64,000 nucleotides of DNA from an uncultured Fibrobacterota bacterium. GTDB taxonomy: Bacteria; Fibrobacterota; Chitinivibrionia; Chitinivibrionales; FEN-1185. How positions within the stretch are numbered: position 1 is the first letter of the stretch; every line of letters starts with the position of its first letter. The notes below the pieces were generated by a model. The model saw only the letters and a program-made list of their open reading frames with translations, was not told the origin of the DNA and did no database searches. The translations under genes and the position numbers were made by a program. Of the stretch, positions 14,384 to 53,200 are shown one piece after another. Location of the stretch: assembly GCA_963753345.1 (NCBI GenBank), contig CAVWBU010000034.1, positions 31,484-95,483 of the forward strand, given 5' to 3'.

Positions 14384-14762
14384 GGTGGGGGATGTCTCCC
14401 CCTGGCCCCCGGCTTCCGGCACTGCGCGCCGGTGATCCGGGGGCACACCCCCTCGTGGGTAGCCCCCAAGCAAGTTTGGTTACAAGATAGACACATCGGC
14501 TGCGGGGGCACCGAGAAAGAGAGTTGAATAGTTGAAGAGTTTCAAATTCAAAGAGGAATCCCCGCCTGATTCATTGCGGATACCGATTTGCGCGAGAAAA
14601 AGTAATTGACTGAATAGAATTCCGTTGCCGCGCGTTAGGGGCGACTGGAGGGCGTGCTGGAGCACGATGCCGCCCGGACCCGCCGCGCAAGCGGTATTGG
14701 GGGCCGTGGCGGCCCGGGGCCGAAGGCCGACGACCCTTGGAAGTACCCGACGGGGTAAACCT
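14384..14762 (-). repeat. Bipartite structured dispersed element, inverted near-full copy
   Basis: Reverse complement of the 35521-35927 copy (ggtgggggatgtctccccctgg...ccccctcgtgggtagccccc...gggggcaccgag...gttgaatagttgaa...ccgcgcgttaggggcgac); lacks the 5'-most GGGCGTTCCCC hairpin. Confidence 0.85.
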
Positions 14763-14786
14763 CCTCCGCTTTGAAATCTTTGATAT

Positions 14787-14839
14787 CTCTAACGCAGCAG
14801 CAGGGTGCCCAAATCTTGATACCACAGCCTTGTTAGGCA
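14787..14839 (-). other. Possible short or degenerate attC site after the AT-rich minus-strand gene
   Basis: Minus strand reads stop TAA-T-GCCTAAC (RYYYAAC) ... GCGTTAGAG (GTTRRR-like); internal pairing is weak. Confidence 0.4.
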
Positions 14840-15526
14840 TTATCTAATTAAATTCACTTGTTTTGCAAAGGTGTGATTCCCAATCGTAAGCTGGAAAAAA
14901 TATGCGCCATTTCTAAAGCCCCTTGCATCAAATAACAAATTATATGATCCTGCATCACAAATACTGCTGATTAATGTCTCTAGTTTTCTACCCTTGGAAT
15001 CAAATACATTGAGCTTAATAAAAGCTCTTTCAGGAATTGACAACCTAAAAGTCATGGTTCGCTCAATTTGATTGGGATAGCATTGGAATTGTATAGACGT
15101 TTGTGAGATTTCAGTTCTATTTCTTTCTATCCCGGATGTTACTCTATCATAAGTTGTGGGTGTATTGAATGAAGTTGGTGTTGCAACTTGCGGTAGGCCG
15201 GTATGCCAATAACCTTCTATCTGCAGACCTGAGGAATCTGATGAAATTTGATATATTCCTTTCCACCCTACTATACCGCTTTGTCCTAAGTCGATTTCTC
15301 TTAGGCCGGAAGAAGGAATCGATAAAGTTGCATAGTTGGCCGTCTCCGGCGGTGTTGTTTGAAATTGAATGATTACCGTTGAATCATTCAAAAAGATATA
15401 TCTGATCGGGTCGCCGGGACCGGAGACGTTGTCCCAGGTTCCTGTCAAAGATTGGGAGGAAGCGTAATTGGTGATTCCTAAGACTAGGAGTAACAACAAG
15501 TAGATTGAAGATAATGATTTTTTCAT
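14840..15526 (-). CDS. Secreted hypothetical protein with T9SS type A-like CTD
   Basis: Signal peptide; QCYPN...LNVFDSKGRKL...GAYFFQL tail; AT-rich; RBS aggag. Confidence 0.8.
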   Translation of the reverse strand: MKKSLSSIYLLLLLVLGITNYASSQSLTGTWDNVSGPGDPIRYIFLNDSTVIIQFQTTPPETANYATLSIPSSGLREIDLGQSGIVGWKGIYQISSDSSGLQIEGYWHTGLPQVATPTSFNTPTTYDRVTSGIERNRTEISQTSIQFQCYPNQIERTMTFRLSIPERAFIKLNVFDSKGRKLETLISSICDAGSYNLLFDARGFRNGAYFFQLTIGNHTFAKQVNLIR

Positions 15527-15846
15527 ACAACGAGTCTCCTTGAGGTTGATGATGAGTGTATAATGTCAGGCGAGCCTGTAGAAATCCCCACTTTTGACTA
15601 GGGTTAGATGCGGTGTAATTGTATCATGATCCAAGTGGACATACCAGACGTAATGAATCTATCGTGCTTTGGGCACAATCAACAGTAGGTTCGCTTCGCG
15701 GCTACAACTGTAGGATTACGTTTTCTCTCTTCAATCCGCATTCCGCAATCATCAATCAAAATGCTCCATTCTTTCTTGAACCTTGTCCTCGGTTTCATCG
15801 ACTATTATTTATATTAAACCTCAAAGGGCGGACTGCGGGGGCACGT

Positions 15847-17205
15847 ATGAAAAAATCGAAGATTCCTGTCGTTGCCATTGGTTTGCTGCTTTTATTTACG
15901 CATGCGTCAAATGCTCAGTGGGTGCAAACAAACGGGGTGTTTGGTTCGGGCCCGACTGCGCTTGCCGTCAGTGGCAGTAACATCTTTGCCGGAACTCTTG
16001 ATAACGGCATTTACCGTTCCACCAATAACGGAACAGACTGGATTGCGGTTGATTCGGGACTGCCTTATTGCCAGTGCCCCCCGCACATGAACTGCCTCGT
16101 TCTCATGAGAAGCAATATCCTTTGTCTTGCCGCAAGCGGCAGCAATATCTTTGCCGGGACTTCCTGCGGCGGCGTTCTTCTTTCGGCCAATAATGGAACC
16201 AGCTGGACCGCGGTTGATTCAGGACTCCCGATTTATTCTGTTCTGTCTCTTGCCGTGAGCGGCAGCACTATCTTTGCAGGGACCACGGGTGATTTTTACC
16301 GTTCTACCAATAATGGAACAAGCTGGACTGCGGTTGATTCAGGACTCACGAATTATCCTGTTTTGTGTCTTGGCGGGAACGATAGCCATATCTTTGCCGG
16401 GACAAATGGTGGTGGTGTTTTTCTCTCCACAAATAACGGAACAAGTTGGACCGCGGTCAATTCAGGACTCCCGAGCAGTACTGTATCGTGTCTTGCAGCA
16501 TGCGGCGCCAATATCTTTGCGGTGGTGCAGCCCACGATTTATAACGGGCCGAATATCCCGGTAATTTCCGTCGATTCCAGGAATGGCGGCACTACTGCCG
16601 TTGCGCCGGACACTGTTGGAATGGAAAGCGGTCTTTACGTTTCCGCCGACAACGGCGCAAGCTGGACCGCGGTCGATTTCGGGCCGCCAAGCGCGGAGGT
16701 CTCTTGTCTTGCCGCGACCGGCAACAATATCTTTGCCGCTACCTGGGGCGGGGTTTACCTTTCCACCAATAACGGAACAAGCTGGGCTTCGGTCAATGCC
16801 GGACTTACGGTCAGTACTGTTTCATCAATTACGGTTATTCCCGTTTCATCTTTTGCCATAAGCGGAAACACTGTTTTTGCCGCGGCCGGCAACGCCGTAT
16901 GGCGCAGGCCGCTTTCGGAAATGATACCGACAAATAACCGTGAGTTTCACAATAAGCAACCGTCCGTCGGCAATCTCAGAATCAACATCAACAAAACCAG
17001 CGTCGCCGTATCCTTTCCCTCGTCCGATGGCCCGGTCACGGTCGGATTGTTTACCATCGCAGGGAAGAGAATTTATTCAGCCACGCATGAAGCTGATAAC
17101 GGAATCCTGAGTATTCCGCTATCGGGATTGTCGGCAGGCGCCTATCTAATGTCAATTACCGGCAGGAATGGCGTACTTCGTTCGTCGTTTGTTGTGACGA
17201 AATAA
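15847..17205 (+). CDS. BNR/Asp-box beta-propeller protein with T9SS-like CTD, paralog of 11064..13166
   Basis: Same AQWVQTNG start, STNNGTSWTAVDSGL repeats and VWRRPL(S/P)EM end; CTD LFTIAGKRI...AGAYLMSI. Confidence 0.88.
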   Translation: MKKSKIPVVAIGLLLLFTHASNAQWVQTNGVFGSGPTALAVSGSNIFAGTLDNGIYRSTNNGTDWIAVDSGLPYCQCPPHMNCLVLMRSNILCLAASGSNIFAGTSCGGVLLSANNGTSWTAVDSGLPIYSVLSLAVSGSTIFAGTTGDFYRSTNNGTSWTAVDSGLTNYPVLCLGGNDSHIFAGTNGGGVFLSTNNGTSWTAVNSGLPSSTVSCLAACGANIFAVVQPTIYNGPNIPVISVDSRNGGTTAVAPDTVGMESGLYVSADNGASWTAVDFGPPSAEVSCLAATGNNIFAATWGGVYLSTNNGTSWASVNAGLTVSTVSSITVIPVSSFAISGNTVFAAAGNAVWRRPLSEMIPTNNREFHNKQPSVGNLRININKTSVAVSFPSSDGPVTVGLFTIAGKRIYSATHEADNGILSIPLSGLSAGAYLMSITGRNGVLRSSFVVTK

Positions 17206-17254
17206 TGGATTGGCAAGACCTCAGCTCCCGTCATGTGTATGCAGTCAAAGTCGC

Positions 17255-17277
17255 GGTCCCGCTTTCGCGGGAATGAC
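17255..17277. repeat. REP/dRS3-like small palindrome
   Basis: tcccgctttcgcgggaatgac. Confidence 0.45.
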
Positions 17278-17330
17278 AAGGCCGAACCTTGCCGCTTTGG
17301 TGTCTTCATTTCTTTGTCTTTCTCCAACCG

Positions 17331-17494
17331 CTCTTCGTGGTGCCCCCGCAGCCGAAGTGTCTATCTCGCAAACGAACTTTCTAGGGGGCTACCCACGAGG
17401 GGGTATGGGTGCAGACCCCGCAGGAAAGCTTTACAAATCATGAAAACATACGCTTTCCGAGGAGGCTGCACCCTAGGGGGACGCCTCCCCCACC
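17331..17494 (+). repeat. Dispersed element, module B only
   Basis: ggtgcccccgcagccgaagtgtctatctcgcaaacgaactttctagggggctacccacgaggggg...ctagggggacgcctcccccacc. Confidence 0.85.
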
Positions 17495-17525
17495 AAATGC
17501 TTTTATTTTGTTAGCAATAGCAAAT

Positions 17526-17555
17526 AAAAAAGGGCGGCTAACTTCACCGCCCTTC
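17526..17555 (-). terminator. Intrinsic terminator downstream of the PPIase gene
   Basis: Minus strand gaagggcggtgaagttagccgcccttttttattt: an 8-bp stem followed by a U-tract. Confidence 0.75.
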
Positions 17556-17586
17556 AAATCAGAACCATCAAAAATATTATCGCATC

Positions 17587-19410: not shown

Positions 19411-19446
19411 GGCGTCACTCCCGTAAGCGTTCCTATGGAACGTTAG

Positions 19447-21315: not shown

Positions 21316-21426
21316 TAATGCTCCCCTGTTTCTTTGACGCGGCGCGAAAGGCTATAAAATACATTAGAATCAAAAGGTTCCCCACTACTATTTCTGGGGA
21401 TGATTTCAATAATAACATAGCAACTT

Positions 21427-21575
21427 GGTGGGGGAAGGATCCCCCTCGCTTCAGCCCGGCGCACTTCCGCAAAATCCAACTCATTACCAATCGTGCGCCG
21501 GTCTTCCGCTACCCCCTCCTGGGTGGCCGCCTTGACAAAGCAACTGCAAGACCATGCATTGTTGCGGCGGCACCC
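21427..21575 (-). repeat. Dispersed element, module B variant, inverted
   Basis: Reverse complement matches 42296-42412 (gggtgccgcc...caatgc...tcttgcag...tttgtcaaggcgg..acccaggagggggtagcgga...gaagcgagggggat...cccacc). Confidence 0.8.
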
Positions 21576-21710
21576 ACGAAGAGCTGTGGTATGAAAATAC
21601 CCCGCCTGACGTGCGTTCTTTCTTGGCAATTGTCAAGAGTATCGGTGTCATCGCGGGCGGAGCGAAGCAATCTACATAAAATAGAACTCAAGTCATTCCA
21701 AGTCACTAAG

Positions 21711-21770
21711 CATCGGCGACATCCCGCTCGAGCGGGACCTCCAGTCGCCCCTAACGCGGCACAGAAGAAC
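21711..21770 (+). repeat. Dispersed element, 3' remnant of module A
   Basis: ctccagtcgcccctaacgcggcacagaag matches the module A terminus. Confidence 0.6.
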
Positions 21771-21807
21771 ATTGCCCAATCCGGGAAACCGCGTTTGCTT
21801 CTGTCAA

Positions 21808-21853
21808 CTCCCCTCTCCCCGTGGGAGAGGGGCGCCCAAAGGGCGGGGTGAGG
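21808..21853. repeat. REP-like palindrome
   Basis: cccctctccccgtgggagagggg...ggggtgagg. Confidence 0.5.
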
Positions 21854-21895
21854 TTAAGCGAAATAACAAATGAGGGTTACACCCGACAGGGCATT

Positions 21896-22518
21896 TCAAT
21901 CCCTCAACTTCTTCATTATTCTTTCACACACAATCTTCGACAACTCCTCCGCCACCTTTGTCCCATCAAGCAATATTATTCTCTTCGGATCTGCCGCGGC
22001 GAGGGCCAGATACCCCTTGCGCACTTTCTCGTAGAATTCCCTGCCGCTGCCCTCTAAGCGGTCGGGGCGCTTGCCGGTTGTTGCGAGGCGTGAAAACGCC
22101 GTGGCAACGTCGATGTCGAACACGAAGGTGAGAGAGGGCGCGATGCCGCCGGTGGCGAAGCTGTTCATCCCGGCAAGGGTCTTGAGAGGAATGCCGCGGC
22201 CGTAACCCTGATAGGCGAAGGTTGCCTCCATGAACCTGTCGCACAGCACAACGTTTCCTTTGTCAAGCGCCGGCGCGATCGTTTCGCGCACGTGCTGGGC
22301 GCGCGCGGCAAAGTACAGGAGCACCTCGCACCCGTCGCTCATTGCGCCGTGGTCCGGCGAAAGCAGAATGTCGCGGATGCGCTCGGCAACGGGCGTGCCG
22401 CCCGGTTCGCGCGTGACCGTGCACGGTATGTTCCTGCCGGCGAGCGTGCGCTGCGCAAGTCCCACCTGCGTGCTCTTCCCGCATCCGTCAATTCCCTCGA
22501 ACGTCACGAACAGGCCGC

Positions 22519-22522
<4 letters not shown>
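21896..22522 (-). CDS. tmk: Thymidylate kinase
   Basis: [38 protein letters not shown] overlap with the secA stop. Confidence 0.96.
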
Positions 22523-25632
<3,110 letters not shown>

Positions 25633-25798
25633 GTCATTCCACCTTGTTGTATCGGAATCTTACGGATTTTCACTGTTGATGCAAACGGGACCTTGGGCGG
25701 CTTCGGCGGCACCGAGTGCCGTGAGGGTCATCGGCCGTGCGTCATTTTGCCCCCGCGCTTGCCCGAACCGGGCAGGTTCCGTTTTCCTGTTTCGGGAT

Positions 25799-29104: not shown

Positions 29105-29143
29105 GATTGTTGACAGTTGATGGTTGACAGTTGACGGTTGACA
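29105..29143. repeat. 7-nt tandem repeat (GTTGACA-like)
   Basis: gttgaca-gttgatg-gttgaca-gttgacg-gttgaca between the two exbB-like genes. Confidence 0.75.
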
Positions 29144-29196
29144 GAATCAGAAACCGTATGCCGTACCTTGCAAAGGCCCGAAACCACAGGCCCTCA

Positions 29197-35520: not shown

Positions 35521-35927
35521 TTGGGCGTTCCCCCGCTTTGCGGGGTCGGTTCCACCCCTTCGGGTGCTTCGAGGCGTCGTCCTTCCGGGCTCGGCAATTC
35601 GCCTCGTTGCCGGACCGCCCGAGTCGCCTGCGGCGAGGGTCGGCCGGCAATGTGTTCTTGCACACCCTCCGTCGCCCCTAACGCGCGGCATGAGAAATCT
35701 ATTCTGCTAATTTATTCTTCTTGCGCTCAGCCTCCAACTTTCAACAGTCAACTTTCCACTCTCTTTCTCGGTGCCCCCGCAACCGAGGTTTCTTATTTGC
35801 AAATTAATTCTCTTGGGGGCTACCCACGAGGGGGTGTGCCCCCGGATCACCATCGCCGCAAAAATTTTGCCTTGGGTAAGGACATGCGGCGATGGAAGCC
35901 GGGGGCCAGGGGGACACTTCCCCCACC
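35521..35927 (+). repeat. Bipartite structured dispersed element, full copy
   Basis: ttgggcgttcccc...gggtcgg...cctaacgcgcggca / spacer with ttcaac units / ggtgcccccgc...gggggctacccacgaggggg...ccagggggacacttcccccacc. Confidence 0.88.
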
Positions 35928-36058
35928 CAAGTTATGAGATGATTCGCTTTTAGTCTCTCCTAATTTCTTCCATTTCCCCGAATAATTACTTATACTTATT
36001 AAGTGGGGTATTTGATGATACCCAGGCTCACACAATAGTCAACGAACCGGGAGGCCCC

Positions 36059-39781: not shown

Positions 39782-39806
39782 GAGATCTACAAAAGGAAAA
39801 TATTGT

Positions 39807-42002: not shown

Positions 42003-42023
42003 TCAATAATTCAAGAAGAAGAA

Positions 42024-42412
42024 TTGGGCGTTCCCCCGCTTCGCGGGGTCGGTCTCCCTCCGGGCTCGGCTATTCGCCTCGTTGCCGGACCGCCCTAATC
42101 GCCTGCGGCGAGGGTCGGCCGGCAATTCGCTCCAGCTCACCCTCCGGTCCACCTAACGCGCGGCAGCAGAATTCTATTCAGTCAATTACTTCTTCTCGCG
42201 CTAATCGGCATCCGCAATAAATTGGCTAGGGGCTCTTCTTTGCATTTTCTACTTTTCTACTTTTCAACGTTTCAACTCTTCAACAACTCCCCAAGGGTGC
42301 CGCCACAGCAATGCACGGTCTTGCAGCTACTTTGTCAAGGCGGTCACCCAGGAGGGGGTAGCGGAGGACTTTGCGAAGCAAAGGTCGAAGCGAGGGGGAA
42401 ACCTCCCCCACA
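42024..42412 (+). repeat. Bipartite structured dispersed element, full copy
   Basis: ttgggcgttcccccgcttcgcggggtcgg...cctaacgcgcggcag...ttcaacgtttcaactcttcaac...gggtgccgcc...ccaggagggggtagcgga...gagggggaaacctcccccac. Confidence 0.88.
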
Positions 42413-42443
42413 TGTAAGACTGTGCTAAAGAAGAAACTTGAGG

Positions 42444-42806
42444 TTAAGCCTGAGTCGCACCCAAACCCGGTTTTGCCTGCTGGTGAAACTTGTCATCCGC
42501 GCCTTTTTTCACCACGGCCGGCGAATACATGTTCTCCAGCCAGAGGCACTTCTTGGGGCAGGCGTCCACGCACGCGCCGCACGAGATGCAGCGCAGGCGG
42601 TTGATCTGCCAGTCCCCCGCCGCCTTGGTCACGATGATCGCGGCCGTGGGACAGCGCTTCTGACAGATGCCGCACAGGATGCATTTGTCGATGTCGATGG
42701 CGACCGCGCCGCGCGTGGCCTTGAAAAACGGCCGCTTCACAAACGGGTACAGGCGGGTGGCGGGGCGCGACAGCACGCTCCGCGCGATCACTTTTCCAAA
42801 CGACAT
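42444..42806 (-). CDS. echF: Ech hydrogenase 2[4Fe-4S] subunit
   Basis: CILCGICQKRCP and CISCGACVDACP; PATRLYP. Confidence 0.9.
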   Translation of the reverse strand: MSFGKVIARSVLSRPATRLYPFVKRPFFKATRGAVAIDIDKCILCGICQKRCPTAAIIVTKAAGDWQINRLRCISCGACVDACPKKCLWLENMYSPAVVKKGADDKFHQQAKPGLGATQA

Positions 42807-42819
42807 ATGGCGATCATGG

Positions 42820-43899
42820 TTACCGCTCCGTGCAGCTGATGCAGGGGTCTATGGTGAGAACGATCACGGGCACGTCGGCCAGTTCGCACCCGCCGAGCAT
42901 CTTGACAAGCGGCGGGACATTGGCGAACGTGGGCGTGCGCACGCGGAAGCGCTCAAGGTTCTTCGTGCCGTTTCCCTTGACATAGTATATGACCTCGCCG
43001 CGCGGCTGCTCGGTGCGGCTGAAGTATTCACCGGAAGGATTGCCGGTCACCTTCACGTCGACCGGGCCGTCGGGTATTGTGGCGATGGCCTGGTAGATCA
43101 TCGAAAACGACTGGTACACCTCGCGGCAGCGCACCATGCACCGCGCGTAGCAGTCGCACCCCGTCTCCACCACGGGCTCCCAGTTGATTTTCGCATACGC
43201 TGCGTAGCCGAGCTTGCGCATGTCCGACGACACCCCGCTGCCGCGGAGCGTGGGGCCCACGGCGCCGAGCAAATGAGCGTCTTCCTTCGAAAGCATGCCC
43301 ACGCCGACTGTCCTGCGCCTCACCGAGCTGTCTTTTTTGAAAACATCGGTGATCTCGCGGCTCATTTTCTCTATGGTCCTCAGCTCGCCTTCGATGCGCT
43401 TGAGCGTGGGAGTGTCGATGTCGCGGCGCACGCCGCCCACCTTGGCCGTCCCGAAGATCACGCGGCCGCCCGTGGTCTCTTCGATGATGTCGAGAAGCTT
43501 TTCGCGCACGCGCCACGAATGCATGAACAGGCTTTCGAAGCCGAACCCGTCGGCGAACAGGCCCAGCCACAGAAGATGGCTGTGGATACGGGACATCTCT
43601 CCCCAGATGGTGCGCAGAAACAGGGCGCGCTCCGGAACGTCAATCTTCATGACGGCTTCGATTGCCTGGCAGTACGACTGGCCGTGGATGAAACTGCAGA
43701 TGCCGCAGATGCGCTCAGCGACATAGGTCATTTCGAGAAAGTCTTTTTTTTCGACGAGCTTTTCCAGTCCGCGGTGGATGAAGCCGATGGACGGGATCGC
43801 CTGGACCACCTTCTCGTCTTCGAGAACGAGATCGAGATGGATGGGCTCCGGAAGCACCGGGTGCTGGGGGCCGAACGGAACAACGGTACGGGTTGCCAT
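42820..43899 (-). CDS. echE: Ech [NiFe]-hydrogenase large subunit
   Basis: GPQHP, HRGLEK, L1 ERICGICS, L2 DPCISCTER with no C-terminal extension. Confidence 0.95.
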   Translation of the reverse strand: MATRTVVPFGPQHPVLPEPIHLDLVLEDEKVVQAIPSIGFIHRGLEKLVEKKDFLEMTYVAERICGICSFIHGQSYCQAIEAVMKIDVPERALFLRTIWGEMSRIHSHLLWLGLFADGFGFESLFMHSWRVREKLLDIIEETTGGRVIFGTAKVGGVRRDIDTPTLKRIEGELRTIEKMSREITDVFKKDSSVRRRTVGVGMLSKEDAHLLGAVGPTLRGSGVSSDMRKLGYAAYAKINWEPVVETGCDCYARCMVRCREVYQSFSMIYQAIATIPDGPVDVKVTGNPSGEYFSRTEQPRGEVIYYVKGNGTKNLERFRVRTPTFANVPPLVKMLGGCELADVPVIVLTIDPCISCTER

Positions 43900-43901
43900 A
43901 A

Positions 43902-44273
43902 TCACTTTGCCGGTTGTTGAGGTTGCGGTGCAAAAGGCGTCGGGACCGACAGTTTGTAGAACTTGCCGCCAAAGTCAAGCGCATTGCCCTTTACCCGTAT
44001 GCCGAACAGGTCGTGCAGCTCGTTCTCATACGTAAACGCGGCGAAATACTCGCCGGTTATGCTCGGGAGTTCCGGATCGTTGACGGGCAAAATCACGCGC
44101 AGATGCGAGCACTTGTAGTCTTTGTCAAACGAATAGGTGACTTCGAAGGAATCCTTGGCGAGGCAGGATATCTGCACCAGGCGCCAGCCTTCCCTGTTCA
44201 TCTGCGCCGCCTTTTCGACAATGGCGGCCTTGTCAACAACCGCCAGCGATTGTTCTTCCACGTGTACCATCAT
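43902..44273 (-). CDS. echD: Ech hydrogenase NuoC-like subunit
   Basis: WRLVQISC, LPSIT, YENELHDLFGI; ATGA overlap with the echC stop. Confidence 0.9.
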   Translation of the reverse strand: MMVHVEEQSLAVVDKAAIVEKAAQMNREGWRLVQISCLAKDSFEVTYSFDKDYKCSHLRVILPVNDPELPSITGEYFAAFTYENELHDLFGIRVKGNALDFGGKFYKLSVPTPFAPQPQQPAK

Positions 44274-44713
44274 GCACTCGCTTTCATTGAGGCAAGCGCC
44301 GCCGCCTTCTTTTCGAGCACGCCGAGCGCCGCCACCACGCCGTCGATGATCGCCTCGGGCCTCACCGCGCAGCCCGGAATGTAGATATCGACCGGGATCA
44401 CGCTGTCCACGCCGCCCTTGACGTTGTAGCATTCGCGGAAAATCCCGCCGCTCGTGGCGCAGATCCCGATGGCCGCGACCACTTTGGGGTCCGGCATCTG
44501 GTTGTAGATGTTTCGCACGACGTCGACATTCTGTTCGTTTATTGAACCGGTGATCAGGAAGACATCGGCATGTTTCGGGTTGCCGGTGTTGATGATGCCG
44601 AAGCGCTCGATGTCGTACAGCGGGGTGAGGCAGGCAAGGACCTCAATGTCGCAGCCGTTGCAGCTCGATCCGTCGTAATGAATGATCCACGGTGATTTCT
44701 TGAGAAAACTCAT
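44270..44713 (-). CDS. echC: Ech hydrogenase small subunit
   Basis: SCNGCDIE, GICATSGG, IPGCAVRPEAI. Confidence 0.95.
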   Translation of the reverse strand: MSFLKKSPWIIHYDGSSCNGCDIEVLACLTPLYDIERFGIINTGNPKHADVFLITGSINEQNVDVVRNIYNQMPDPKVVAAIGICATSGGIFRECYNVKGGVDSVIPVDIYIPGCAVRPEAIIDGVVAALGVLEKKAAALASMKASA

Positions 44714-44721
44714 TGCTGGCC

Positions 44722-45576
44722 TCATTTAATCAGAAAGGCGACACAAAAAATATTGACGACGCCGAATACCCCGGCGACGATCCACGATGATTTCACGGTG
44801 AAACGCCAGGTGAGACGGGCAAAGGTGTTATCGATGAAGATTTCGATGAAATACGTAATAACGACCGCGCAAATTGCCGCGATCCAGCTGGAGGCGAAGA
44901 ACAGGTACACAAACCCCATGAGCAGCACGTTTTCGTACCAGTGGGCGATTTCGATGACGGCGAGCGCCGGGCCGGAAAACTCGGTGGTGGCGCCCTTGAC
45001 AAGCTCCTGGTGGCCGTGGTGCGACGTGGAAAGGTCGAACGGCGACTTTCTCAGCTTGATGGTGAGCACGAAGAGGAACGCGACGAACACGCCCGGAAGA
45101 TACGCAAAAAGCAACTGGTGAAACCCGGCAATCGCGTCCACGTGCCAGCTCTTGGTGACCATGAACATTCCCACCGCCATGATGATGAGCACCGGCTCGT
45201 ACGACATCATCTGCAGAAGCTCGCGTTCGGCCCCGATGTTCGAGTACGGCGAATTGGGCGAGAAGGCGCCGAGCACGAAAAACACGCCCGCCACCGCAAG
45301 CGCGAATATGGTGAGCAGGAGATCGCCGCCTGAGAAGAACAGGCACCCGGTTACAATGACGAAGACGAGAAAGCAAATCATGTAGAAGTTCTGAAACGCA
45401 TTCACCACATTGCCTTTTTTGCCGAAAAGCTTGAGCACGTCGTAGAACGGCTGGAGCACGGGCGGACCCACCCGCGACTGCATGCGCGCGGTTATGATGC
45501 GGTCCACACCGGCCAGAAGCCCGCCGATAAACGGGGCGAGTACAACCCAACCAACGACCCAAAGCGCTGTTTTCAT
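44722..45576 (-). CDS. echB: Ech hydrogenase NuoH-like membrane subunit
   Basis: DRIITARMQSRVGPPVLQPFYDVLKL, KLRKSPFDLSTSHHGHQELVKG. Confidence 0.93.
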   Translation of the reverse strand: MKTALWVVGWVVLAPFIGGLLAGVDRIITARMQSRVGPPVLQPFYDVLKLFGKKGNVVNAFQNFYMICFLVFVIVTGCLFFSGGDLLLTIFALAVAGVFFVLGAFSPNSPYSNIGAERELLQMMSYEPVLIIMAVGMFMVTKSWHVDAIAGFHQLLFAYLPGVFVAFLFVLTIKLRKSPFDLSTSHHGHQELVKGATTEFSGPALAVIEIAHWYENVLLMGFVYLFFASSWIAAICAVVITYFIEIFIDNTFARLTWRFTVKSSWIVAGVFGVVNIFCVAFLIK

Positions 45577-47510
45577 AATTTCACCGCCGAGAACATCGTT
45601 ACGATCAGGAGGATCGACAGGACAATGCCTGCAACCGTCAGTTTCTTTTCGCTGAAGAACCCGGACAAATAATAATTGCGCACCGTGGCATGCTGCGTCG
45701 CGCCCATTGCGCCGACGAACGAGTCATTTTCGCCGGTGTTGGCGCCCCCGAGATACCGCGCCGCGTATATCGGCTTCTTGGGATACGCGAGAAACCCAAG
45801 CGGCAGGACCACCATGAGGCCGAGCAGTATCAACATGATGATGATGTTCCCCTGCGTCAAGCCGGCAGCCGCCTGCGATTCCACGTGGTACAGGCCGGCG
45901 ATGTACGGCGCGACCGACGCCCACGAGATAACCGGGAACAGCGCGGCGGTCGCAATGGTTGCGAAAGCCAGAACCGCAAGAGCGGTCCACTCGTCGCCTG
46001 GAACGCGGCCCTCCCCTTTCTTTATATCCCCGGGCACGCTCACGATCTTGCCCAGCCACTTTGTCCAGAAAAACAGCGTGGGCGCGCTGCCGTAGGCAAG
46101 GATCACGGCAAGGAGCGGCGTGTACTTGACATTCACGAAAGCCTCGAGGCAGGCCCACTTGCTGATGAGCATGCCGAACGGCGCGAGGAACATGCCGAGA
46201 ATGCCCACGATCATCACCACGGCAAGCCCGGGCCTGTTCACAATGAGTCCGCCCATGTCTTCTATGTCACGACTCCCGATCTTATGCTCAATGGAGCCCA
46301 CGCCGAGGAACAGGAGTCCCTTGGAGACCGCGTGGAAAATGGTGAGGAGCACGGCGGCCCACAGGGTCTGCGGCGTTCCCACGCCCGCGCATGCCACAAT
46401 AAGCCCGAGGTTCGCTATCGTGGAATAGGCCAGCACGCGTTTTGCATTGTTCTGCGTCACCGCGATAATTGACGTCAGGAGAAACGTGACGCCGCCCACG
46501 AGCGCGAGGAAATACCCCGCCCAGGTTCCCTGCAGCACCGGCGCGAACTTGATGATGATGAAAATTCCCGCCTTCACCATGGTGCTGGAGTGCAGGAGCG
46601 CGGACACGGGTGTGGGCGCGACCATGGCCCCGAGCAGCCACGAGGAGAACGGCATCTGCGCCGACTTCGCGAGCCCGGCAAAACAGATCAGAACAACGGG
46701 GATCAGCACGACACCGGCATTAATCTTGCCAAGGGTCCCGGAAGTAATCTTTCCGAAGGTGATGATCTGGTTGAGGTCGACGGTATGCAGGCCGCTGAAC
46801 TTGACAAGGTAGAGAATTCCTCCGGCAAAGCCAAGACCGCCCAGCAGGTTGAGGCCGAGGGCGAGATAGGCGTTTCTCGTGGCCTCTTCGGTCTTGGGAT
46901 AGCCGATGAGAATGAACGACGAGAGCGTGGTGATTTCCCAGAACAGGTAGAGCCATGCAAGGTTGTTGGCGAACACCACGCCGAACATCGCCGACAGAAA
47001 GAAAAACAAGATGAAGAAGAAGCTCCTCTGCCGGTCTTTCATCTGCGGATTGTGGTGATGGTAATCCCGCATGTAGCTGGTGGCGTAGAAGCAGATAAGA
47101 CTGCCCACGATGCCGATGATGAGCGCCATGATAACCGAAAAGTTGTCGATGTACAGCGCGTTTTCAACCTTGGGCATTGCGCCGGAAAGCTCGCAGTAGG
47201 CCATGATCCCGGCCTGTGCGATGATCAGCGCCGGTATGTACCACTCGCGCCTCTTGATTCCGATGCACTTATAAAGAAGGAACAGCGACAGCAGCATCTC
47301 GCCGCCGAAAAAAATCATGTCGAGGTATGGAAGTTCAACCTTGAAAAACTGGTCATGGCCGTTAAACACGACCGCCGCGCAAACCGACCCGGCCGCGATG
47401 AGAATCGCGCTTATGCGCACGAGCATGTTTCGGAACGCATTCGGGGGCAACACCGCGAAAACCAGGGACATAGCAGCGGGAAACAACAAAAGAAAGAGCA
47501 GAATGTTCAT
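45573..47510 (-). CDS. echA: Ech hydrogenase NuoL-like antiporter subunit
   Basis: FWEITTL, KSAQMPFSSWLLGAMVAPTPVSALLHSSTMVKAG, KRVLAYSTIANLG. Confidence 0.93.
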   Translation of the reverse strand: MNILLFLLLFPAAMSLVFAVLPPNAFRNMLVRISAILIAAGSVCAAVVFNGHDQFFKVELPYLDMIFFGGEMLLSLFLLYKCIGIKRREWYIPALIIAQAGIMAYCELSGAMPKVENALYIDNFSVIMALIIGIVGSLICFYATSYMRDYHHHNPQMKDRQRSFFFILFFFLSAMFGVVFANNLAWLYLFWEITTLSSFILIGYPKTEEATRNAYLALGLNLLGGLGFAGGILYLVKFSGLHTVDLNQIITFGKITSGTLGKINAGVVLIPVVLICFAGLAKSAQMPFSSWLLGAMVAPTPVSALLHSSTMVKAGIFIIIKFAPVLQGTWAGYFLALVGGVTFLLTSIIAVTQNNAKRVLAYSTIANLGLIVACAGVGTPQTLWAAVLLTIFHAVSKGLLFLGVGSIEHKIGSRDIEDMGGLIVNRPGLAVVMIVGILGMFLAPFGMLISKWACLEAFVNVKYTPLLAVILAYGSAPTLFFWTKWLGKIVSVPGDIKKGEGRVPGDEWTALAVLAFATIATAALFPVISWASVAPYIAGLYHVESQAAAGLTQGNIIIMLILLGLMVVLPLGFLAYPKKPIYAARYLGGANTGENDSFVGAMGATQHATVRNYYLSGFFSEKKLTVAGIVLSILLIVTMFSAVKL

Positions 47511-47623
47511 CGAAAGCCTCGCAGGCAGTCAAATGAGTTGAAAAAGACGTATAAAATGGAATATGGCGGAGGTTAAGGCAAGGAATATCTGGGCCGGTAT
47601 TTTCGTAAATAACAAATTAAGAA

Positions 47624-47900
47624 TTGGGCGTTCCCCGGCCTTCGGCCGGGTCGGTTCTCCCTGCGGGCTCGGCTGTTCGCCTCGTTGCCGGATCGCCCTA
47701 TGCCTATCGGCCGGGTCGACCGGCAATCCCGCTATGGCGGGACCACTTCGGTCCCCCTAACGCGCGGCAGCAGGACTCTTATCAGTCAAGCACTTTTCTC
47801 CCGCCGATCTGTATCCACAAGAGAAAGTTACAAATCTCTTGAACGTTTCAACGATCACGCTCAACTTTCAACGCTTCAACTATTCAACGTTTCAACTTCT
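47624..47900 (+). repeat. Dispersed element, module A plus spacer (no module B)
   Basis: ttgggcgttccccggccttcggccgggtcgg...ccctaacgcgcggcag...tttcaacgcttcaactattcaacgtttcaac running into the aminotransferase stop. Confidence 0.85.
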
Positions 47901-49068
47901 TGATAGCGTATTCAAATCCCTCAAACGACCTCGTTATCGTCTCCTCACTCACGCAGAACACAATCCGGAAGTAGCCCGGTGCGCCGAAGCCGGTGCCGGG
48001 AACGGTGAGCACGAGCTTTTCCTGGAGGACCTTTACAAATTCGACGTCGTTGCCGCCGGGCGCCTTCGGGAACAGGTAGAACGTGCCGCCGGGCGTGATG
48101 AAATCGTATCCCATCTTCTTGAGGCCGTTGCACAGAAGGTCGCGGCGCTTTTGGTAAAGGCCCGCGTCCACGCCGGCGCCCTGTATTTTCGCCACCACGC
48201 GCTGCATAAGAGCAGGGGCATTGACAAACCCGAGAATGCGGTTGCACAATATCATGCCGTCCACAAGGTTGTCGAAATCGTCCGCGCCGGGATGCACGGC
48301 AATGTAGCCGAGCCGCTCGCCCGGGATCGACAGGTCCTTTGAATACGAATTCACCACGATGCTGTTTTTGTAATTTGAAAACAGCGGCGGGACCGAAAGC
48401 CCGTCGTAGACAATCTTACGGTACGGCTCGTCGCTCAGGAGGTAGATGGCCCTGCCGGTCTCGGCGCTCTTGCGTTCGAGCATCCGGCAGAGTTCACGTA
48501 TGGTGGTCTCGGGGTATACCTTGCCCGTGGGGTTGTTGGGCGAGTTGATGAGCACGCCCGCTGTTCTTTTGTCAATCGCCTTTTCGATGGCCGCCACGTC
48601 GAGGTCGAAGTCCTCGCGCGTGCGGGCGAGCACCATTTCGCCGCCGTGGTTGCGGATGTAGAAATTGTATTCCACGAAATACGGCACGTTTACCATAACG
48701 GTATCGCCCGGATTCAGGATGGTCTTGAGCACCACGTTGAGCCCGCCGCCCGCGCCGCAGGTCATGATGATGCTTTTCTCGGTTGTTGTCGCGCCCTGTT
48801 CCTTCGACACGTAGTCGGCCACGCTTTTGCGGGTCTCTGCATAGCCGGCATTGGCCATGTAGCCGTGCTTGAGCGGGATCTTCCCGTTGACAATGTCGAC
48901 AAGCGCCTTCTGAAACGCGGCGGGCGGCTCAAGGTCAGGGTTGCCCAGCGTGAAGTCGCACACGTTCTGCTCGCCGTGCTCTTTCTTGAGCTGCGCGCCC
49001 AGCTCGAACATCTTGCGGATGAACGACGAGCCGGCCATGGTGTCTTTGACGGTTTTTGCGATTGCCAT
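47884..49068 (-). CDS. PLP-dependent class I/II (aspartate-type) aminotransferase
   Basis: INSPNNPTG, SDEPY, SYSKDLSIPGERLGY. Confidence 0.95.
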   Translation of the reverse strand: MAIAKTVKDTMAGSSFIRKMFELGAQLKKEHGEQNVCDFTLGNPDLEPPAAFQKALVDIVNGKIPLKHGYMANAGYAETRKSVADYVSKEQGATTTEKSIIMTCGAGGGLNVVLKTILNPGDTVMVNVPYFVEYNFYIRNHGGEMVLARTREDFDLDVAAIEKAIDKRTAGVLINSPNNPTGKVYPETTIRELCRMLERKSAETGRAIYLLSDEPYRKIVYDGLSVPPLFSNYKNSIVVNSYSKDLSIPGERLGYIAVHPGADDFDNLVDGMILCNRILGFVNAPALMQRVVAKIQGAGVDAGLYQKRRDLLCNGLKKMGYDFITPGGTFYLFPKAPGGNDVEFVKVLQEKLVLTVPGTGFGAPGYFRIVFCVSEETITRSFEGFEYAIKKLKR

Positions 49069-49098
49069 AATGTAAATCCTTTCTCTTTAATAAATATC

Positions 49099-49542
49099 TG
49101 GGCGTTCCCCCATGTGGAGCCGCAGGCCTCGCGGCTCCACATGGGTCGGTCTCCCTGCGGGCTCGGCTATTCGCCTCGTTGCCGGACCGCCCCTATGCTT
49201 GACGCGGGGTCGACCGGCAATCCCGCTATAGCGGGACCGCTCCGGTCCACCTAACGCGCGGCAGAAGAATTCTTATATGTCAAACGACTCTTATCACGCC
49301 ATTCGGTATCCACAATAAATAAGCTATGGCTTTTTCTTCTTTGTCCTCAACGCTTCAACTATTCAACGTTTCAACCTTTCAACTCTCTTTCTCGGTGCCC
49401 CCGCAGGCGAAGTTTCTTTCTCGCAGACCGACTTTCTAGGGGGCTACCCACGAGGGGGTGTGGGTGCCAATGTCGAGACGTTGGGTTTTTGGCCTTTGCT
49501 TTGAGTCTCGACATGGCACCCCAGGGGGAAACTTCCCCCACC
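49099..49542 (+). repeat. Bipartite structured dispersed element, full copy
   Basis: tgggcgttcccc-atgtggagccgcaggcctcgcggctccacat-gggtcgg...cctaacgcgcggcag...cttcaactattcaacgtttcaac...ggtgcccccgc...gggggctacccacgaggggg...ccagggggaaacttcccccacc. Confidence 0.88.
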
Positions 49543-49565
49543 ATATGCTCCTGTATTTGATCTTA

Positions 49566-50936
49566 TTATTCGTAAACCGGCACTATTTTGTATTCCCGTA
49601 TCTTCCTATACAATGTCTTTGGATTAATCTCCAGAATTTTCGCCGCCTTCCCCTTGTGGCCTTGCACGTGCTTGAGCACGTTGACAATGTGCCTGCGCTC
49701 GATTTCCGAGAGCGGCGCGATGAGGGCCTCGGGCGCCTTCGGCGGCGCGGCTCCAGGGACATTCTCCTCCGGGCGCCGCTTGACTGTAAGGAACGACACG
49801 TCCGCGGCGGTGATGGTGCGCCCCGGGCACAGAACGCAGGTGCGCTCCACAACATTTCTGAGCTCCCGGATGTTCCCAGGCCAGTCGTAGATCTTCAGCG
49901 CCGCCATGGCGTCAGGCGTGAAGCTGTTCTGAAACCCCTGCAGCCGCATGACGTTCTCCACGAGCAGGGCGATGTCGTTCTTGTGGTCGCGCAGCGGCGG
50001 CACCGTAATCGACAGCACGTTGAGGCGGTAATACAGGTCTTCGCGGAAAAGTTTCCTGGCGACCAGGTCTTCGAGGTTCCGGTTCGTGGCGCACAGGATG
50101 CGGACGTTCAGGCTTATGTCCTTTGTCCCGCCCACGCGGCGTATCTCGCCCGTTTCCAGAAACCTCAGCAGCGTTGCCTGGAACGCGAGGGGCAGATCGC
50201 CGATTTCGTCGAGGAACAGCGTGCCGCCGTCGGCGACCTCGGCAAGGCCGCGCTTCTGCGTCTTCGCGTCGGTAAACGCGCCCTTTTCGTAACCGAACAG
50301 CTCGCTCTCCAGCAGATTCTCGGGCAGCGACGCGCAGTTGACGGCCACGAACTGCTTCTCCGCGTTCTGGCTCTTTTCGTGGATGGAGCGCGCCACGAGT
50401 TCCTTGCCCGTGCCGCTCTCGCCCAGGATGAGCACGTTCGACTGCGTGGGCGCCACGCGCGTGATGATGTCACGCAGACCCGCCATCTCGCCGCTTTTCC
50501 CGATGATGGCCCCGTAGCCGGTTGTGCGCATGTGCTCGCGCAGCATGCGACGCCCGAGCTGCGTCTGCTGGTGCTCGAGGGCGCGGTCGATCTGAATGAC
50601 CAGCTCAGGGAGCTGGTACGGCTTCCTCACGTATTCGAACGCGCCGAGCTTCATGCATTCGATGGCGCTTTCGATCGTGGCGTTGCCGGTGAGGACGATG
50701 ACTTCGCTGGCGATGTTCTCGGCGCGCATGGTGCGCAGCACCGCTATGCCGTCGACCGCGGGCATCACGATGTCGAGCAGCACGCAGTGATAGGAATCCT
50801 CGCGGACCCGGCGCAGCGCCTCCTCGCCGCCGGACGCCACATCCACCGCGTATCCCTCGCGCGCGAGCTCCCTGCCGAGGAGGATCCGCAGGCTCTCCTC
50901 ATCGTCGACCACGAGAAGTTTCCCCTTTGGTGCCAT
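49566..50936 (-). CDS. Sigma-54-dependent response regulator (NtrC family)
   Basis: Receiver domain (LLVVDDE, LLDIVMP), GESGTGKE, ESELFG..KGAFTDA, LFLDEIG, WPGNIREL, Fis HTH. Confidence 0.95.
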   Translation of the reverse strand: MAPKGKLLVVDDEESLRILLGRELAREGYAVDVASGGEEALRRVREDSYHCVLLDIVMPAVDGIAVLRTMRAENIASEVIVLTGNATIESAIECMKLGAFEYVRKPYQLPELVIQIDRALEHQQTQLGRRMLREHMRTTGYGAIIGKSGEMAGLRDIITRVAPTQSNVLILGESGTGKELVARSIHEKSQNAEKQFVAVNCASLPENLLESELFGYEKGAFTDAKTQKRGLAEVADGGTLFLDEIGDLPLAFQATLLRFLETGEIRRVGGTKDISLNVRILCATNRNLEDLVARKLFREDLYYRLNVLSITVPPLRDHKNDIALLVENVMRLQGFQNSFTPDAMAALKIYDWPGNIRELRNVVERTCVLCPGRTITAADVSFLTVKRRPEENVPGAAPPKAPEALIAPLSEIERRHIVNVLKHVQGHKGKAAKILEINPKTLYRKIREYKIVPVYE

Positions 50937-50953
50937 GGTTCGCCTTTCTTGCT

Positions 50954-52129
50954 TTACCGGACTTCCGGCGCGGACGGCGCGCCGGGAATTTCGAGGATGA
51001 CGGTCGTACCCTTGCCCGCCTCGCTCGTGACGTCGATCGCGCCGCTGCATTCTTCCATGATCACGTGACTCATGGCGAGACCGAGCCCCGTGCCCTGCCC
51101 CACCTGCTTGGTGGTGAAAAACGGGTCGAACACTTTCGGCAGCACGTCGGCGGGGATTCCCGGCCCGTTGTCGGTCACGCGCAGGCGTACGAACCGTCCG
51201 TCGGTTTCCGCCGTGATCGTCACCGCGCTGCCGCTCGGGCAGAAATCAAGCGCGTTGGTGAGGATATAGACAACTGCCTGCTGGAGTTTCTGCAGGTCGG
51301 CCCGCACCAGGAACAGAGGCGGGACCGACGAAGCGATGGCGACCTGCTTCCTCGCCGCCGCGGACTTGACAAGCAGCAATGCGCCGGCGATGCATTCGGC
51401 AAGCGAAAAGTCGCGGATCTGGACCTCGCCCTCGCGCGCGAACCTCGACAGGTTTTCAACGGTGTCGCGGCACCGCACGGCTTCGGAATTTATGATAGAG
51501 ATGTACTGTTCAAGTTCCTCTTTGTCCATGCTTTCGTTGTTCTTCAGGCGCTCCAGGACCGCGCCGGAAAATCCGAGGATCGCGGTGAGCGGGTTGTTGA
51601 GCTCGTGCGCCACGCCCGAGGCGAACGTGCCGATGGACGCGAGGCGGGCCGAACGGTACATCTGTGTCCGCGCCGCCTGCTGCTCCTGCTCGTATCTGTT
51701 CTTCGACACGAGCAGTTCCTGCTGGAGACTGCGGATGCGCAGCAGGACCCTGATCCGCGCGACAAGTTCGTCGGCGTTGAACGGTTTGGTGATGAAATCG
51801 TCGGCAAGGGAAAGCCCCGTGATTTTCTCGTCCTGCCCGGACAGGGCGGTGAGAAAGACGATCGGCACGAATTCACTCTTGCCGAACGTCCTTTTCATTC
51901 TGCGGGCGATTTCGAATCCGTTCATGTCCGGCATCCTCACATCGAGAACCACGAGGTCGACCGCCTGCTTCCGAATAAAAGTGAGCGCCGCGGCGCTGTC
52001 GGTGCAGATGCTCACGCCGAGCCCCGCGCGTCCCAGCACCTCCGCGATGTACTTCGCGGCGACCCCGTCGTCGTCTACGACAAGGACCCTCTTTTCAGGC
52101 GCGGGCGAGGTTTTTTCCGAACCGTTCAT
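50954..52129 (-). CDS. Hybrid receiver-histidine kinase
   Basis: N-terminal [37 protein letters not shown]. Confidence 0.93.
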
Positions 52130-52712
52130 CCAGCATTCTCCTGAGCGCGGCAAGCGCCCTTCCTCTGTGGCTGATCGCATTTTTTGTCAACGCGTCAATC
52201 TCGGCGAACGTTCGCGAATGTCCGCGTGGAACGAACACCGGGTCGTACCCGAACCCGTCGGTCCCGCGCGAAGCAAGCCCGATGGCGCCTTCACAGACGC
52301 CACTTGCGACCAGTTCCTCGGAGGCCGACACTTTCATCACGACAACGCACCTGAACCGCGCTGTGCGCCTGTCAATGCCGCACTCACGGAGCGCGGCAAG
52401 CAGCTTGTCGAGGTTTTCCCGGTCGGTCGCGCGCTCGCCAGCGAACCGCGCGCTGCGCACGCCGGGCGCGCCGTTGAGAAAATCCACTTCAAGGCCCGAG
52501 TCGTCGGCAAGGGACCATATTCCCTTCTTGTCAAACACCCATCGGGCTTTTGCCTGCGCGTTTTCGAGGAAGGTTGTGCCATTCTCTGGTATTGAGGGTA
52601 CAGGGTTCCAATGGTCCTTTAAAGATGTAATCTCGAATGGAAGACCAGAGCAGATTTCCCTGATCTCCCGGAGTTTGCCCATGTTGTTAGTTGCGACGAT
52701 TACTTTTTGCAT
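52095..52712 (-). CDS. rdgB: Non-canonical purine NTP pyrophosphatase (HAM1 family)
   Basis: ATNNMGKLRE, ADDSGL, GFGYDPVF, KNAISHR. Confidence 0.96.
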   Translation of the reverse strand: MQKVIVATNNMGKLREIREICSGLPFEITSLKDHWNPVPSIPENGTTFLENAQAKARWVFDKKGIWSLADDSGLEVDFLNGAPGVRSARFAGERATDRENLDKLLAALRECGIDRRTARFRCVVVMKVSASEELVASGVCEGAIGLASRGTDGFGYDPVFVPRGHSRTFAEIDALTKNAISHRGRALAALRRMLDERFGKNLARA

Positions 52713-52721
52713 TATAATAAT

Positions 52722-53200
52722 TTGGGCGTTCCCCTTTGTAGAGACGCACAGCCGTGCGTCTCTACAAAGGGTCGGCCGTCCTTCCGGTCTCGGCCTTCGG
52801 CCTCGGGCGGCCTGCCACGAAGGCCCTTCGGGCCGTGGTCAGGCCACACCGCGCTTTTGCGCGGCCTCCAGTCCTGCCTAACGCGCGTCAAAGGAAATCA
52901 ATTCTGTCAATTAATTCTTCTTGCGCCAATCGGAATGCTCAGAAGATCATTTTGTGCCATTTCTTCGGGTGATTGCTTCGCTACGCTCGCAATGACACTT
53001 GTTTTCTTTTATCTGCCTCTTAAGTATCGGCTTTTCAACTACTCAACTCTCTCAACCTCTCAACTACTCTTCTCGGGTGCCCCCACACAGGTGCTGGTTC
53101 TAGCAACCGCCTCCGCAAGGGGTGCACCCAGGAGGGGGTAGCGGAGGGATCCGCAGGCCGAAGGCCGAGGAGACCGTAGCGAGGGGGAATCTTCCCCCAC
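52722..53200 (+). repeat. Bipartite structured dispersed element, full copy with embedded REP-like hairpins
   Basis: ttgggcgttcccc-tttgtagagacgcacagccgtgcgtctctacaaa-gggtcgg...cctaacgcgcg...ttcaactactcaactctctcaac...gggtgccccc...ccaggagggggtagcgga...gagggggaatcttcccccac. Confidence 0.85.

Follow-up and report, generated by a model that had tools for sequence, protein, structure and literature searches.

A family of dispersed repeats that is modular, structured and non-coding occupies a 64,000-nucleotide (nt) stretch of DNA from an uncultured Fibrobacterota bacterium of the order Chitinivibrionales (GenBank assembly GCA_963753345.1, contig CAVWBU010000034.1, positions 31,484–95,483; this whole stretch is hereafter the window). 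In its complete form the unit is a composite in which module A, a spacer, a tandem TCAAC tract and module B follow one another in that order, as they do in five copies of the window. Judged from its sequence, module A is a divergent, GC-rich and branched variant of a superfamily of Y-shaped units, one arm of which is the Rfam family Flavo-1 (RF01705); the window copies themselves are not RF01705 members as that model defines them. Module A is widespread and the A–B composite is lineage-specific: as far as searched, module B and the composite are undescribed and confined to Chitinivibrionales and Fibrobacterota assemblies.

Copies were located with two covariance models (CMs): R1, for module A, which was built from 14 GC-rich copies and run over all 64 kb with filters off, and R2, for module B. 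R1 returned six matches with E≤2e-5 plus one degenerate fragment, while two further weak matches (E about 0.5–0.8) lie inside coding sequence and are unrelated. R2 returned seven matches with E≤1e-26, all others having E≥0.05. When the five long copies were compared with the window by blastn, all were recovered, with 62–89% identity across module-sized stretches. An earlier reading of the bare letters (the sequence-only reading) had named nine places, and each of them carries the sequence it described, by blastn, R1 and R2. The copies, together with one stand-alone tract, are as follows.

14384–14830 (−), composite copy: A at 14632–14798 with a disrupted 5′ head (R1, 40.7 bits, E 2e-5), period-8 tract at 14520–14541 (Tandem Repeats Finder) and B at 14384–14512 (R2, 108 bits); also found by blastn
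17339–17494 (+), module B alone, subtype B1 (R2, 106.9 bits)
21427–21574 (−), module B alone, subtype B2, head-to-head with the adjoining A fragment (R2, 104 bits)
21610–21757 (+), degenerate fragment of module A, 3′ part with CCTAACGCG (R1, 19 bits, E 0.11; blastn)
29108–29144 (−), stand-alone TCAAC tract of period 7 with 5 units, in the same orientation as an ExbB-like gene that starts ~16 nt downstream
35521–35927 (+), composite copy: A at 35522–35684 enlarged by a hairpin cassette of ~30 nt, then the spacer, a short TCAAC tract and B at 35770–35927
42024–42412 (+), composite copy: A at 42025–42159, tract at 42245–42284 (5 × 8 nt), B (B2) at 42296–42412
47624–47896 (+), A, spacer and tract without B: A at 47625–47763, period-8 tract of ~8 units at 47838–47896
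49099–49542 (+), composite copy: A at 49099–49257, in which P2 is a perfect palindrome with 15-nt arms (49109–49145), tract at 49347–49384, B (B1) at 49394–49542
52722–53201 (+), composite copy: A at 52723–52884, in which P2 is a perfect palindrome with 18-nt arms (52732–52771), tract at 53035–53069, B (B2) at 53076–53201

The constituent motifs are strongly over-represented relative to dinucleotide shuffles of the window: TGGGCGTTCCCC occurs 5 times (0.55 expected; 5 was reached by none of 100 shuffles), CCTAACGCGCG with up to one mismatch 8 times (1.8 expected; six of the eight inside elements) and TCAACNNNTCAAC 12 times (0.16 expected), every one inside elements. Period-8 tracts were detected in 5 elements by Tandem Repeats Finder. 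An origin of the pattern in assembly error, or in fortuitous likeness among GC-rich low-complexity stretches, was considered and rejected, its probability being negligible. The modules are indeed rich in G and C runs, and two frame disruptions in the leucyl-tRNA synthetase gene of the window (described below) may be indel errors; but the motif counts lie far above those of shuffles, the model scores are 80–127 bits for five of the six A copies (40.7 for the disrupted 14632–14798) and 103–111 bits for B, and the same elements stand at syntenic sites of an independent assembly.

The architecture had been thought constant. That holds for the five A–spacer–tract–B composites, but the modules are separable: B stands alone at 17339 and at 21574(−), and the copy at 47624 consists of A, spacer and tract without B. 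There is also a second arrangement, head-to-head, in which an inverted B (start ...GGCACCC) lies ~25–35 nt ahead of the 5′ end of A; it was seen at loci L092 and L068 of other genomes (the locus set is described below) and in the window at 21427–21757 and 14790–14830. The stand-alone tract at 29108–29144(−) and the tract of the elements are possibly one module, and the TCAAC tract may be an independent module that acts in a 5′ leader or promoter. The intergenic gap that holds the B copy and A fragment of 21427–21757 contains a further GC-rich palindrome at 21790–21850 (CCCCTCTCCCCGTGGGAGAGGGG then GCGCCCAAAGGGCG), which is outside both modules.

Module A has the form TGGGCGTTCCCC-hairpin-GGGTCGG...CCTAACGC and folds into a Y: a 5-bp closing helix P1 (GCGTT/AACGC), a hairpin P2 (CCCC...GGGG) stacked on P1, and a long arm P3 that branches off and in the GC-rich lineage has three inner hairpins. 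Over the 36 pairs of the 14 GC-rich copies, 95.6% of cells are standard pairs, as compared with 89.8% in shuffles and 27–47% in controls with slid partners, and ten of the 36 pairs vary on both sides; neither the pairing nor the number of double changes was attained by any of 500 shuffles. P1, P2 and one small hairpin are uninformative on covariation because they are invariant in this set. In a copy outside the search pattern (L059, 3968–4106), one P2 pair has changed from C-G to A-T.

The base of P3 was compared across phyla in a set for which the search pattern fixed the 5′ side only. Watson–Crick pairing was found at position 3 in 77/85 (shuffle mean 43, maximum 56), at position 5 in 62/85 (39, 51) and at position 6 in 63/85 (30, 44), and between these positions lie conserved C.T and T.C mismatches (59/85 and 58/85). 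The partners include GGGCTAT/CTATCCC, GGGCTTT/CAATCCC, GGGCCAT/CTGTCCC and GGCCTTT/CAATGCC. In addition, 37/85 of the P2 inserts fold more stably than their own shuffles (z<−2). A tRNA-like reading of the opposite strand (helix, then CCA) was rejected, as P1 is not extendable and there is no T-loop. Six copies of one Bacteroidales assembly (L021, L035, L036, L011, L052 and L108) have near-identical P2 and scaffold and differ in their P3 tips, and several copies of that assembly are flanked by heptamer tandem repeats (AATTGTC, TAGAATG). At L065 of a Chitinispirillaceae assembly, a copy of A (~130–378(−)) is seemingly broken by a ~190-bp insertion with 17-nt inverted ends (CAATGTCATTGCCTTAA...) and with GGGTCGGTCC duplicated on both sides; the insertion has the look of a small transposable element, unrelated to the repeat in which it came to rest.

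A pattern of TGGGCGTTCCCC, 5–35 free bases and GGGTCGG was then the basis of a genome scan, which gave at least 112 loci; the counts and the host range that follow are lower bounds. The 3′ motif C[CT]TAAC[GA] lies within 45–320 bases downstream in 82 of the 113 matches listed (81 of the 112 loci), as compared with about 7% estimated by chance. Among the matches listed, these 81 loci belong, by record titles, to Bacteroidota (39), Fibrobacter/Fibrobacterota (19), one Chitinivibrionales assembly (6), Spirochaetota, mostly Treponema (14), and Gracilibacteria, Reyranella and Lachnospiraceae (one each); the other 31 listed loci are mostly coding-sequence matches in GC-rich genomes, with a few truncated or variant copies. 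Several copies per genome are found.

The likeness of module A to Flavo-1, which the sequence-only reading had raised, is real as homology. Rfam Flavo-1 scored above its gathering threshold in 11 of 40 related loci scanned, always on the strand opposite to the pattern and covering the hairpin between GGGTCGG and CCCTAACGC. Module A and Flavo-1 have the junction sequences GGGTCGGGC...CCCTAACGC in common; both place a long irregular hairpin between the motifs, and both are multicopy and intergenic. The flanks of Flavo-1 read GCGUUAGGGAU...AGCCCGAC on the Rfam strand, to which GGGTCGG...CC(C)TAACGC on the opposite strand corresponds in the window copies; at least in its Flavo-1 seed rows, the supplement of Weinberg et al. 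(2010) likewise gives the reverse complement of the same flanks. However, the window copies match neither the Flavo-1 nor the Acido-Lenti-1 model. No Rfam family was found in the window at gathering scores, and lowering the bar to E≤10, for all 64 kb and for 52700–53220 (521 bases) by itself, gave none either; no window copy reaches the Flavo-1 gathering score of 42 bits, and Acido-Lenti-1 (RF01687) has no match in the window even at E≤10. Flavo-1 is a single long irregular hairpin with purine-rich internal loops; the window arm has branches (helices 4–7) and loops that are purine-rich on the Rfam strand (see below). The window copies further differ from Flavo-1 in that their P3 arm is GC-rich and contains three inner hairpins; the Rfam family models the other strand and omits P1 and P2, its hosts are Bacteroidetes rather than a Chitinivibrionales relative, and it has no spacer, tract and module B attached. 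Literature searches on Flavo-1, the motif strings, flavobacterial intergenic palindromic repeats and RAYT/REPIN in these phyla found no description of this unit, and the composite, suspected to be new, has no prior description among them.

Module B occurs as two subtypes, B1 (CTACCCACGAGGGGGTGTG) and B2 (CACCCAGGAGGGGGTAGCGGAGG), whose consensus comprises a helix Pa (GGTGCCCCC/GGGGGCTACC), two further hairpins, of which one is small and the other variable and not alignable by MAFFT, and at the end a GGGGG-loop-CCCCC hairpin. Since Pa has a single compensatory pair (in 3 sequences) and the terminal hairpin is invariant, covariation lends B thin support. The terminal hairpin is extended in L076, where by eye a B variant follows A, and bears a loop insert in L029. 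Locus searches with R1 and R2 covered 100 of the 112 loci (all but L101–L112), among which R2 made 7 matches in 6 loci, solely in the Chitinivibrionales assembly and one Fibrobacterota assembly. Besides the window, a TCAAC tract is found among the 112 loci in L020 only; a single match in L018 was discarded as an isolated word pair, and short tandem repeats beside A are not a general feature (strong tracts in just 5/81 downstream and 3/80 upstream flanks). Small hairpin cassettes move from one context to another, in either orientation and in either module: four copies have a 30-nt one in their module A, L029 has it inverted in the terminal loop of B, and the hairpin CTCGGCCTTCGGCCT of A recurs inverted in B. 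Pairing of the terminal loop of B with the inside of Pa, as a pseudoknot, was judged unconvincing (complementarity of the middle four bases, by eye, 4/4, 4/4 in an orthologue that is not independent, 3/4, 2/4 and 2/4).

The Chitinivibrionales assembly, from a sister species about 90% identical, is syntenic with the window, its locus L019 matching 40563–44443 at 92–93% and L020 matching 45131–50178 at 89.5% identity, and this one relative permits a comparison of orthologous sites. At each of the three shared intergenic sites the element is present in both genomes. At 49099 the copies align throughout, and the P2 of the window, the palindrome with 15-nt arms, stands opposite a short TCGCTACGCTC loop in the relative. 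At 47624 and 42024 the ends are retained and the interior is of a different subtype; module A of 47624 is 64% identical between species versus 91–93% for the flanking genes. In the variable hairpin stem of B, two substitutions separate orthologous copies and both are uncompensated. The swappable hairpins thus arise mostly from replacement and newly made palindromes, not from slow compensatory drift, because interiors were exchanged, a palindrome was newly made and the stem substitutions were left uncompensated. The sequence-only reading had ascribed hairpins that differ and yet stay paired to selection on structure; this stands for the scaffold helices, which covary, but not for the variable hairpins, which look replaced or newly palindromic.

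All copies lie between open reading frames (ORFs) and fill most of their intergenic gaps; the tract at 47838–47896 shares sequence with the final codons of a gene whose end is at 47884. In the window they are surrounded by housekeeping genes of ordinary chromosomal kind, namely those for SecA, thymidylate kinase, Ham1, LeuRS, an aminotransferase and a TonB-dependent receptor, together with a complex-I-like operon and a two-component system that has a sigma-54 activator. Two ORFs that span elements, 35521–35937 and 52707–53141, have no Pfam family, and a conserved ORF of the element was rejected, as they share just a 36-residue stretch at 19 bits. At the related loci, the 5′ side of the element lies a median 47 nt past the end of a co-oriented gene, and orientation relative to the neighbours is unbiased (24 same and 32 opposite on the 5′ side; 27 and 29 on the 3′ side). 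The ORF and Pfam scan and these counts agree with three earlier claims: that copies are intergenic, have no conserved ORF and are indifferent to flanking gene orientation. Together with the R1 and R2 copies and the folds, they leave a multicopy, non-coding, structured and modular family standing.

We tentatively read the family as non-autonomous DNA whose active form is a folded single strand and whose copies diversify through recombination at the invariant scaffolds. The unit is a mosaic repeat, comparable in kind to bacterial interspersed mosaic elements and repetitive extragenic palindromes (BIME/REP) or to BOX, put together from the separable modules A, spacer, TCAAC tract and B. It would be selfish, its folded single strand being recognised in trans by an enzyme, in analogy to REP/RAYT, IS200/IS605-derived elements and attC/IntI, and it would settle in AT-rich intergenic DNA near gene ends. 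Resident copies would subsequently swap interiors via recombination at the scaffolds and acquire, at the tips of helices, new palindromes or small hairpin cassettes. In favour of this reading are the covarying folds, the exchanged interiors and the new palindrome at orthologous sites, the cassettes in either orientation and either module, the spread over several phyla with several copies per genome, the position close behind gene ends, the weak strand bias and the points against a dedicated RNA given below. The modules, with their folds, covariation and distribution, the replaced interiors and the absence of a linked ORF are what the sequences show; that the unit acts as DNA, is mobilised in trans and owes its mosaics to recombination is what we infer.

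A series of observations weighs against it. The comparison of filled with empty sites that had been proposed found no empty site, all three orthologous sites being filled in both species, so that no insertion polymorphism was seen with the one relative. By eye, no target-site duplication was found at five window copies, whose flanks are AT-rich and whose ends are undefined to the base. Comparing the 5′ 70 nt with the reverse-complemented 3′ 70 nt gave z from −0.3 to 2.0 in seven of eight composites, in line with the earlier statement that terminal inverted repeats are absent, and among cross pairs just 11/108 had z>3; the signal of the eighth composite is explained by a nested cassette. By Pfam, no transposase, integrase, reverse transcriptase or HUH domain was found in 209 ORFs (of 241 selected) within 2.5 kb of 60 loci, nor any transposase, integrase or reverse transcriptase in 60 window ORFs, and blastn against plasmid (2 queries) and phage (1 query) collections gave no match. 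Conservation points the same way. At 49099, outside P2, A is 88% and B 92% identical between species, while spacer and tract are each 60% and the third codon positions of flanking genes 80–83%; A and B together exceed the third-codon identity (241/267 versus 852/1039, P=8e-4), which fits function or concerted evolution and not neutral junk, and the spacer lies below it (P=4e-8). Finally, the internal loops of A are 87% pyrimidine on the strand on which the unit is written here and so purine-rich on the Rfam strand, as is typical of RNA.

A mobile element, as the sequence-only reading had it, was accordingly not borne out by site occupancy, target duplications, terminal repeats or linked enzymes. 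An autonomous form within 2.5 kb of these copies is ruled out; a single-copy enzyme acting in trans from elsewhere need not adjoin them. A Y1 (HUH) gene of RAYT type flanked by the repeats was found neither near the 60 loci nor in the window, the stretches that this search covered. Clustering of 663 ORFs from the 60 loci by blastp yielded no common neighbour protein, only lineage paralogues (methionine synthase, Fib_succ_major and sigma-54 activators), and no target word is conserved beyond TT ahead of the 5′ end. By eye, the 3′ half of B2 resembles an inverted copy of the head of A, a likeness that is weakly supported and was set aside.

The loop composition and the conservation bring in a second explanation, which we regard as somewhat less likely: that the modules are structured non-coding RNAs, A read from the Rfam Flavo-1 strand and B from the strand written here, made by divergent transcription from the AT-rich spacer, or else mRNA-borne elements of stability, processing or protein binding. 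Besides the covarying helices, it is favoured by strand asymmetry at unpaired positions, the conserved single-stranded stretch of B being 79% purine on the written strand against the pyrimidine-rich loops of A, and by the conservation of A and B, but not of the spacer, above the third-codon level. Three of the six window A copies, read on the Rfam strand, lie 10–114 nt upstream of a co-oriented gene start. Flavo-1 is graded as likely RNA in Table 1 of Weinberg et al. (2010). On the other hand, there is no orientation bias towards neighbouring genes, the cassettes occur in both orientations, and a scan for promoter consensus of sigma-70 type and for terminators found nothing recurrent in the elements. 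In the published transcriptome of Flavobacterium psychrophilum (PMC9723704), as far as its account of Flavo-1 goes, matches lie sense, antisense or outside transcribed regions, with no consistent transcript. A non-coding RNA family, the other possibility raised earlier, was not borne out either.

Measures of strand do not agree for module A. Its opposite strand folds more stably in 74/82 copies and the written strand of B in 10/11, a difference that would suit the RNA explanation but that base composition may explain; folding energy tracks G content and was discarded for the choice of strand. G.U pairs are used on the written strand, in 21 cells of one A helix and in one pair of B. When helices were folded without wobble, however, G.T mismatches were no commoner than A.C (10 versus 13 among 2870 pairs; 4 versus 6 outside helix 4), a point against selection at the level of RNA. 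In the window, five of six A copies have the same orientation and lie on the strand of negative GC skew. Any link to the replication or coding strand is weak. Of 50 loci, where copies that share a genome are dependent observations, 33 have flanks with negative GC skew on the written strand (P=0.03), and in 31 most coding bases fall on the opposite strand (P=0.12).

The conservation at 49099 would also suit a site recruited by the host, in which folded or duplex modules bind a host protein (a nucleoid, topoisomerase, replication or recombination factor) and selection holds fixed intergenic places; we consider this decidedly unlikely. REP/BIME sequences, for comparison, bind gyrase and IHF. Occupation of the same intergenic sites in two species, the position near gene ends and, in two copies, a spacer sequence matching the DnaA-box consensus at 8/9 positions (by eye) are as expected of such a site. 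The patchy spread over several phyla, including single loci of Lachnospiraceae, Reyranella and Gracilibacteria, fits transfer better, though, the interiors are freely replaced, and a 5-bp closing helix across >100 nt is meaningless in duplex DNA. Folded single-stranded DNA is the reading we favour. In its widest form, which is unlikely, module A and the whole Flavo-1 superfamily would serve an undescribed mobile or recombination system, present in Bacteroidota, Fibrobacterota and Spirochaetota alike, as its cis-acting site: a folded single strand defined by its structure, not its sequence, whose arms would accept hairpin cassettes. The Chitinivibrionales form would have gained a second end, B, and Flavo-1 would not be a small RNA.

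Elsewhere in the window, leucyl-tRNA synthetase is encoded at 53314–55774(−) as three ORFs in three frames (54851–55774, 53658–54854 and 53314–53652) that are jointly full-length; the two frame disruptions are either assembly indel errors or the mark of a broken gene. Positions 1–10000 have none of the repeats and a lower G+C content (41% in the first 4 kb versus about 58% elsewhere), and their ORFs are mostly without Pfam family, among them one of 1058 aa (5019–8195), an HNH-domain protein (2812–3906) and a DUF5131 protein (9249–9971); the region is possibly an island of foreign origin or of defence genes. Inside a Sortilin/BNR-repeat protein gene (15619–17205) there is a 120-bp tandem repeat (2.4 copies, 16187–16474). 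ARAGORN found no tRNA or tmRNA gene in the window.

Among known systems, attC sites function as a folded single strand, and like module A they have short pairing conserved ends, conserved mismatches and a folded centre that is free in sequence and length. Their end polarity is reversed, however (5′ RYYYAAC...GTTRRRY 3′ in attC, 5′ GTT...AAC 3′ here), and the present elements flank no cassettes, the intervening genes being syntenic housekeeping ones, with no integrase seen; identity with attC was rejected on polarity and cassette flanking. Palindrome-associated elements derived from IS200/IS605 and miniature inverted-repeat transposable elements are likewise small, non-coding and intergenic, with a hairpin near each end and no clear terminal inverted repeats. 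In contrast to these, the end hairpins here are unlike on one strand (CCCC...GGGG versus GGGGG...CCCCC), no target word is held in common past the TT, and neither a filled/empty pair nor a parent element was found. Closer in kind are the enterobacterial BIME/REP and the BOX of Streptococcus pneumoniae (boxA-boxB(n)-boxC), both of which are mosaic: a few separable, hairpin-forming intergenic modules without ORF recur near gene ends, and both their combination and their copy number vary. In sequence they are unlike the present elements, and the present modules are much longer (about 140–165 nt) and contain a three-way junction; we know of no RAYT-type enzyme for them.

It is the comparison with Flavo-1 that has the widest bearing. 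Flavo-1 has stood in Rfam since 2010 as a small RNA of unknown function from Bacteroidetes only. The catalogued hairpin is a single arm of a larger, Y-shaped unit whose ends are strongly conserved. This unit reaches well beyond Bacteroidetes, behaves as a dispersed, recombining repeat and in one lineage is joined to a second structured module. Should the unit work as folded single-stranded DNA, bacteria of the gut, rumen, soil and sea would commonly carry an enzyme still to be discovered; if it acts as RNA, the family and its strand require re-annotation. Either way, models of the full unit would improve genome annotation in these phyla.

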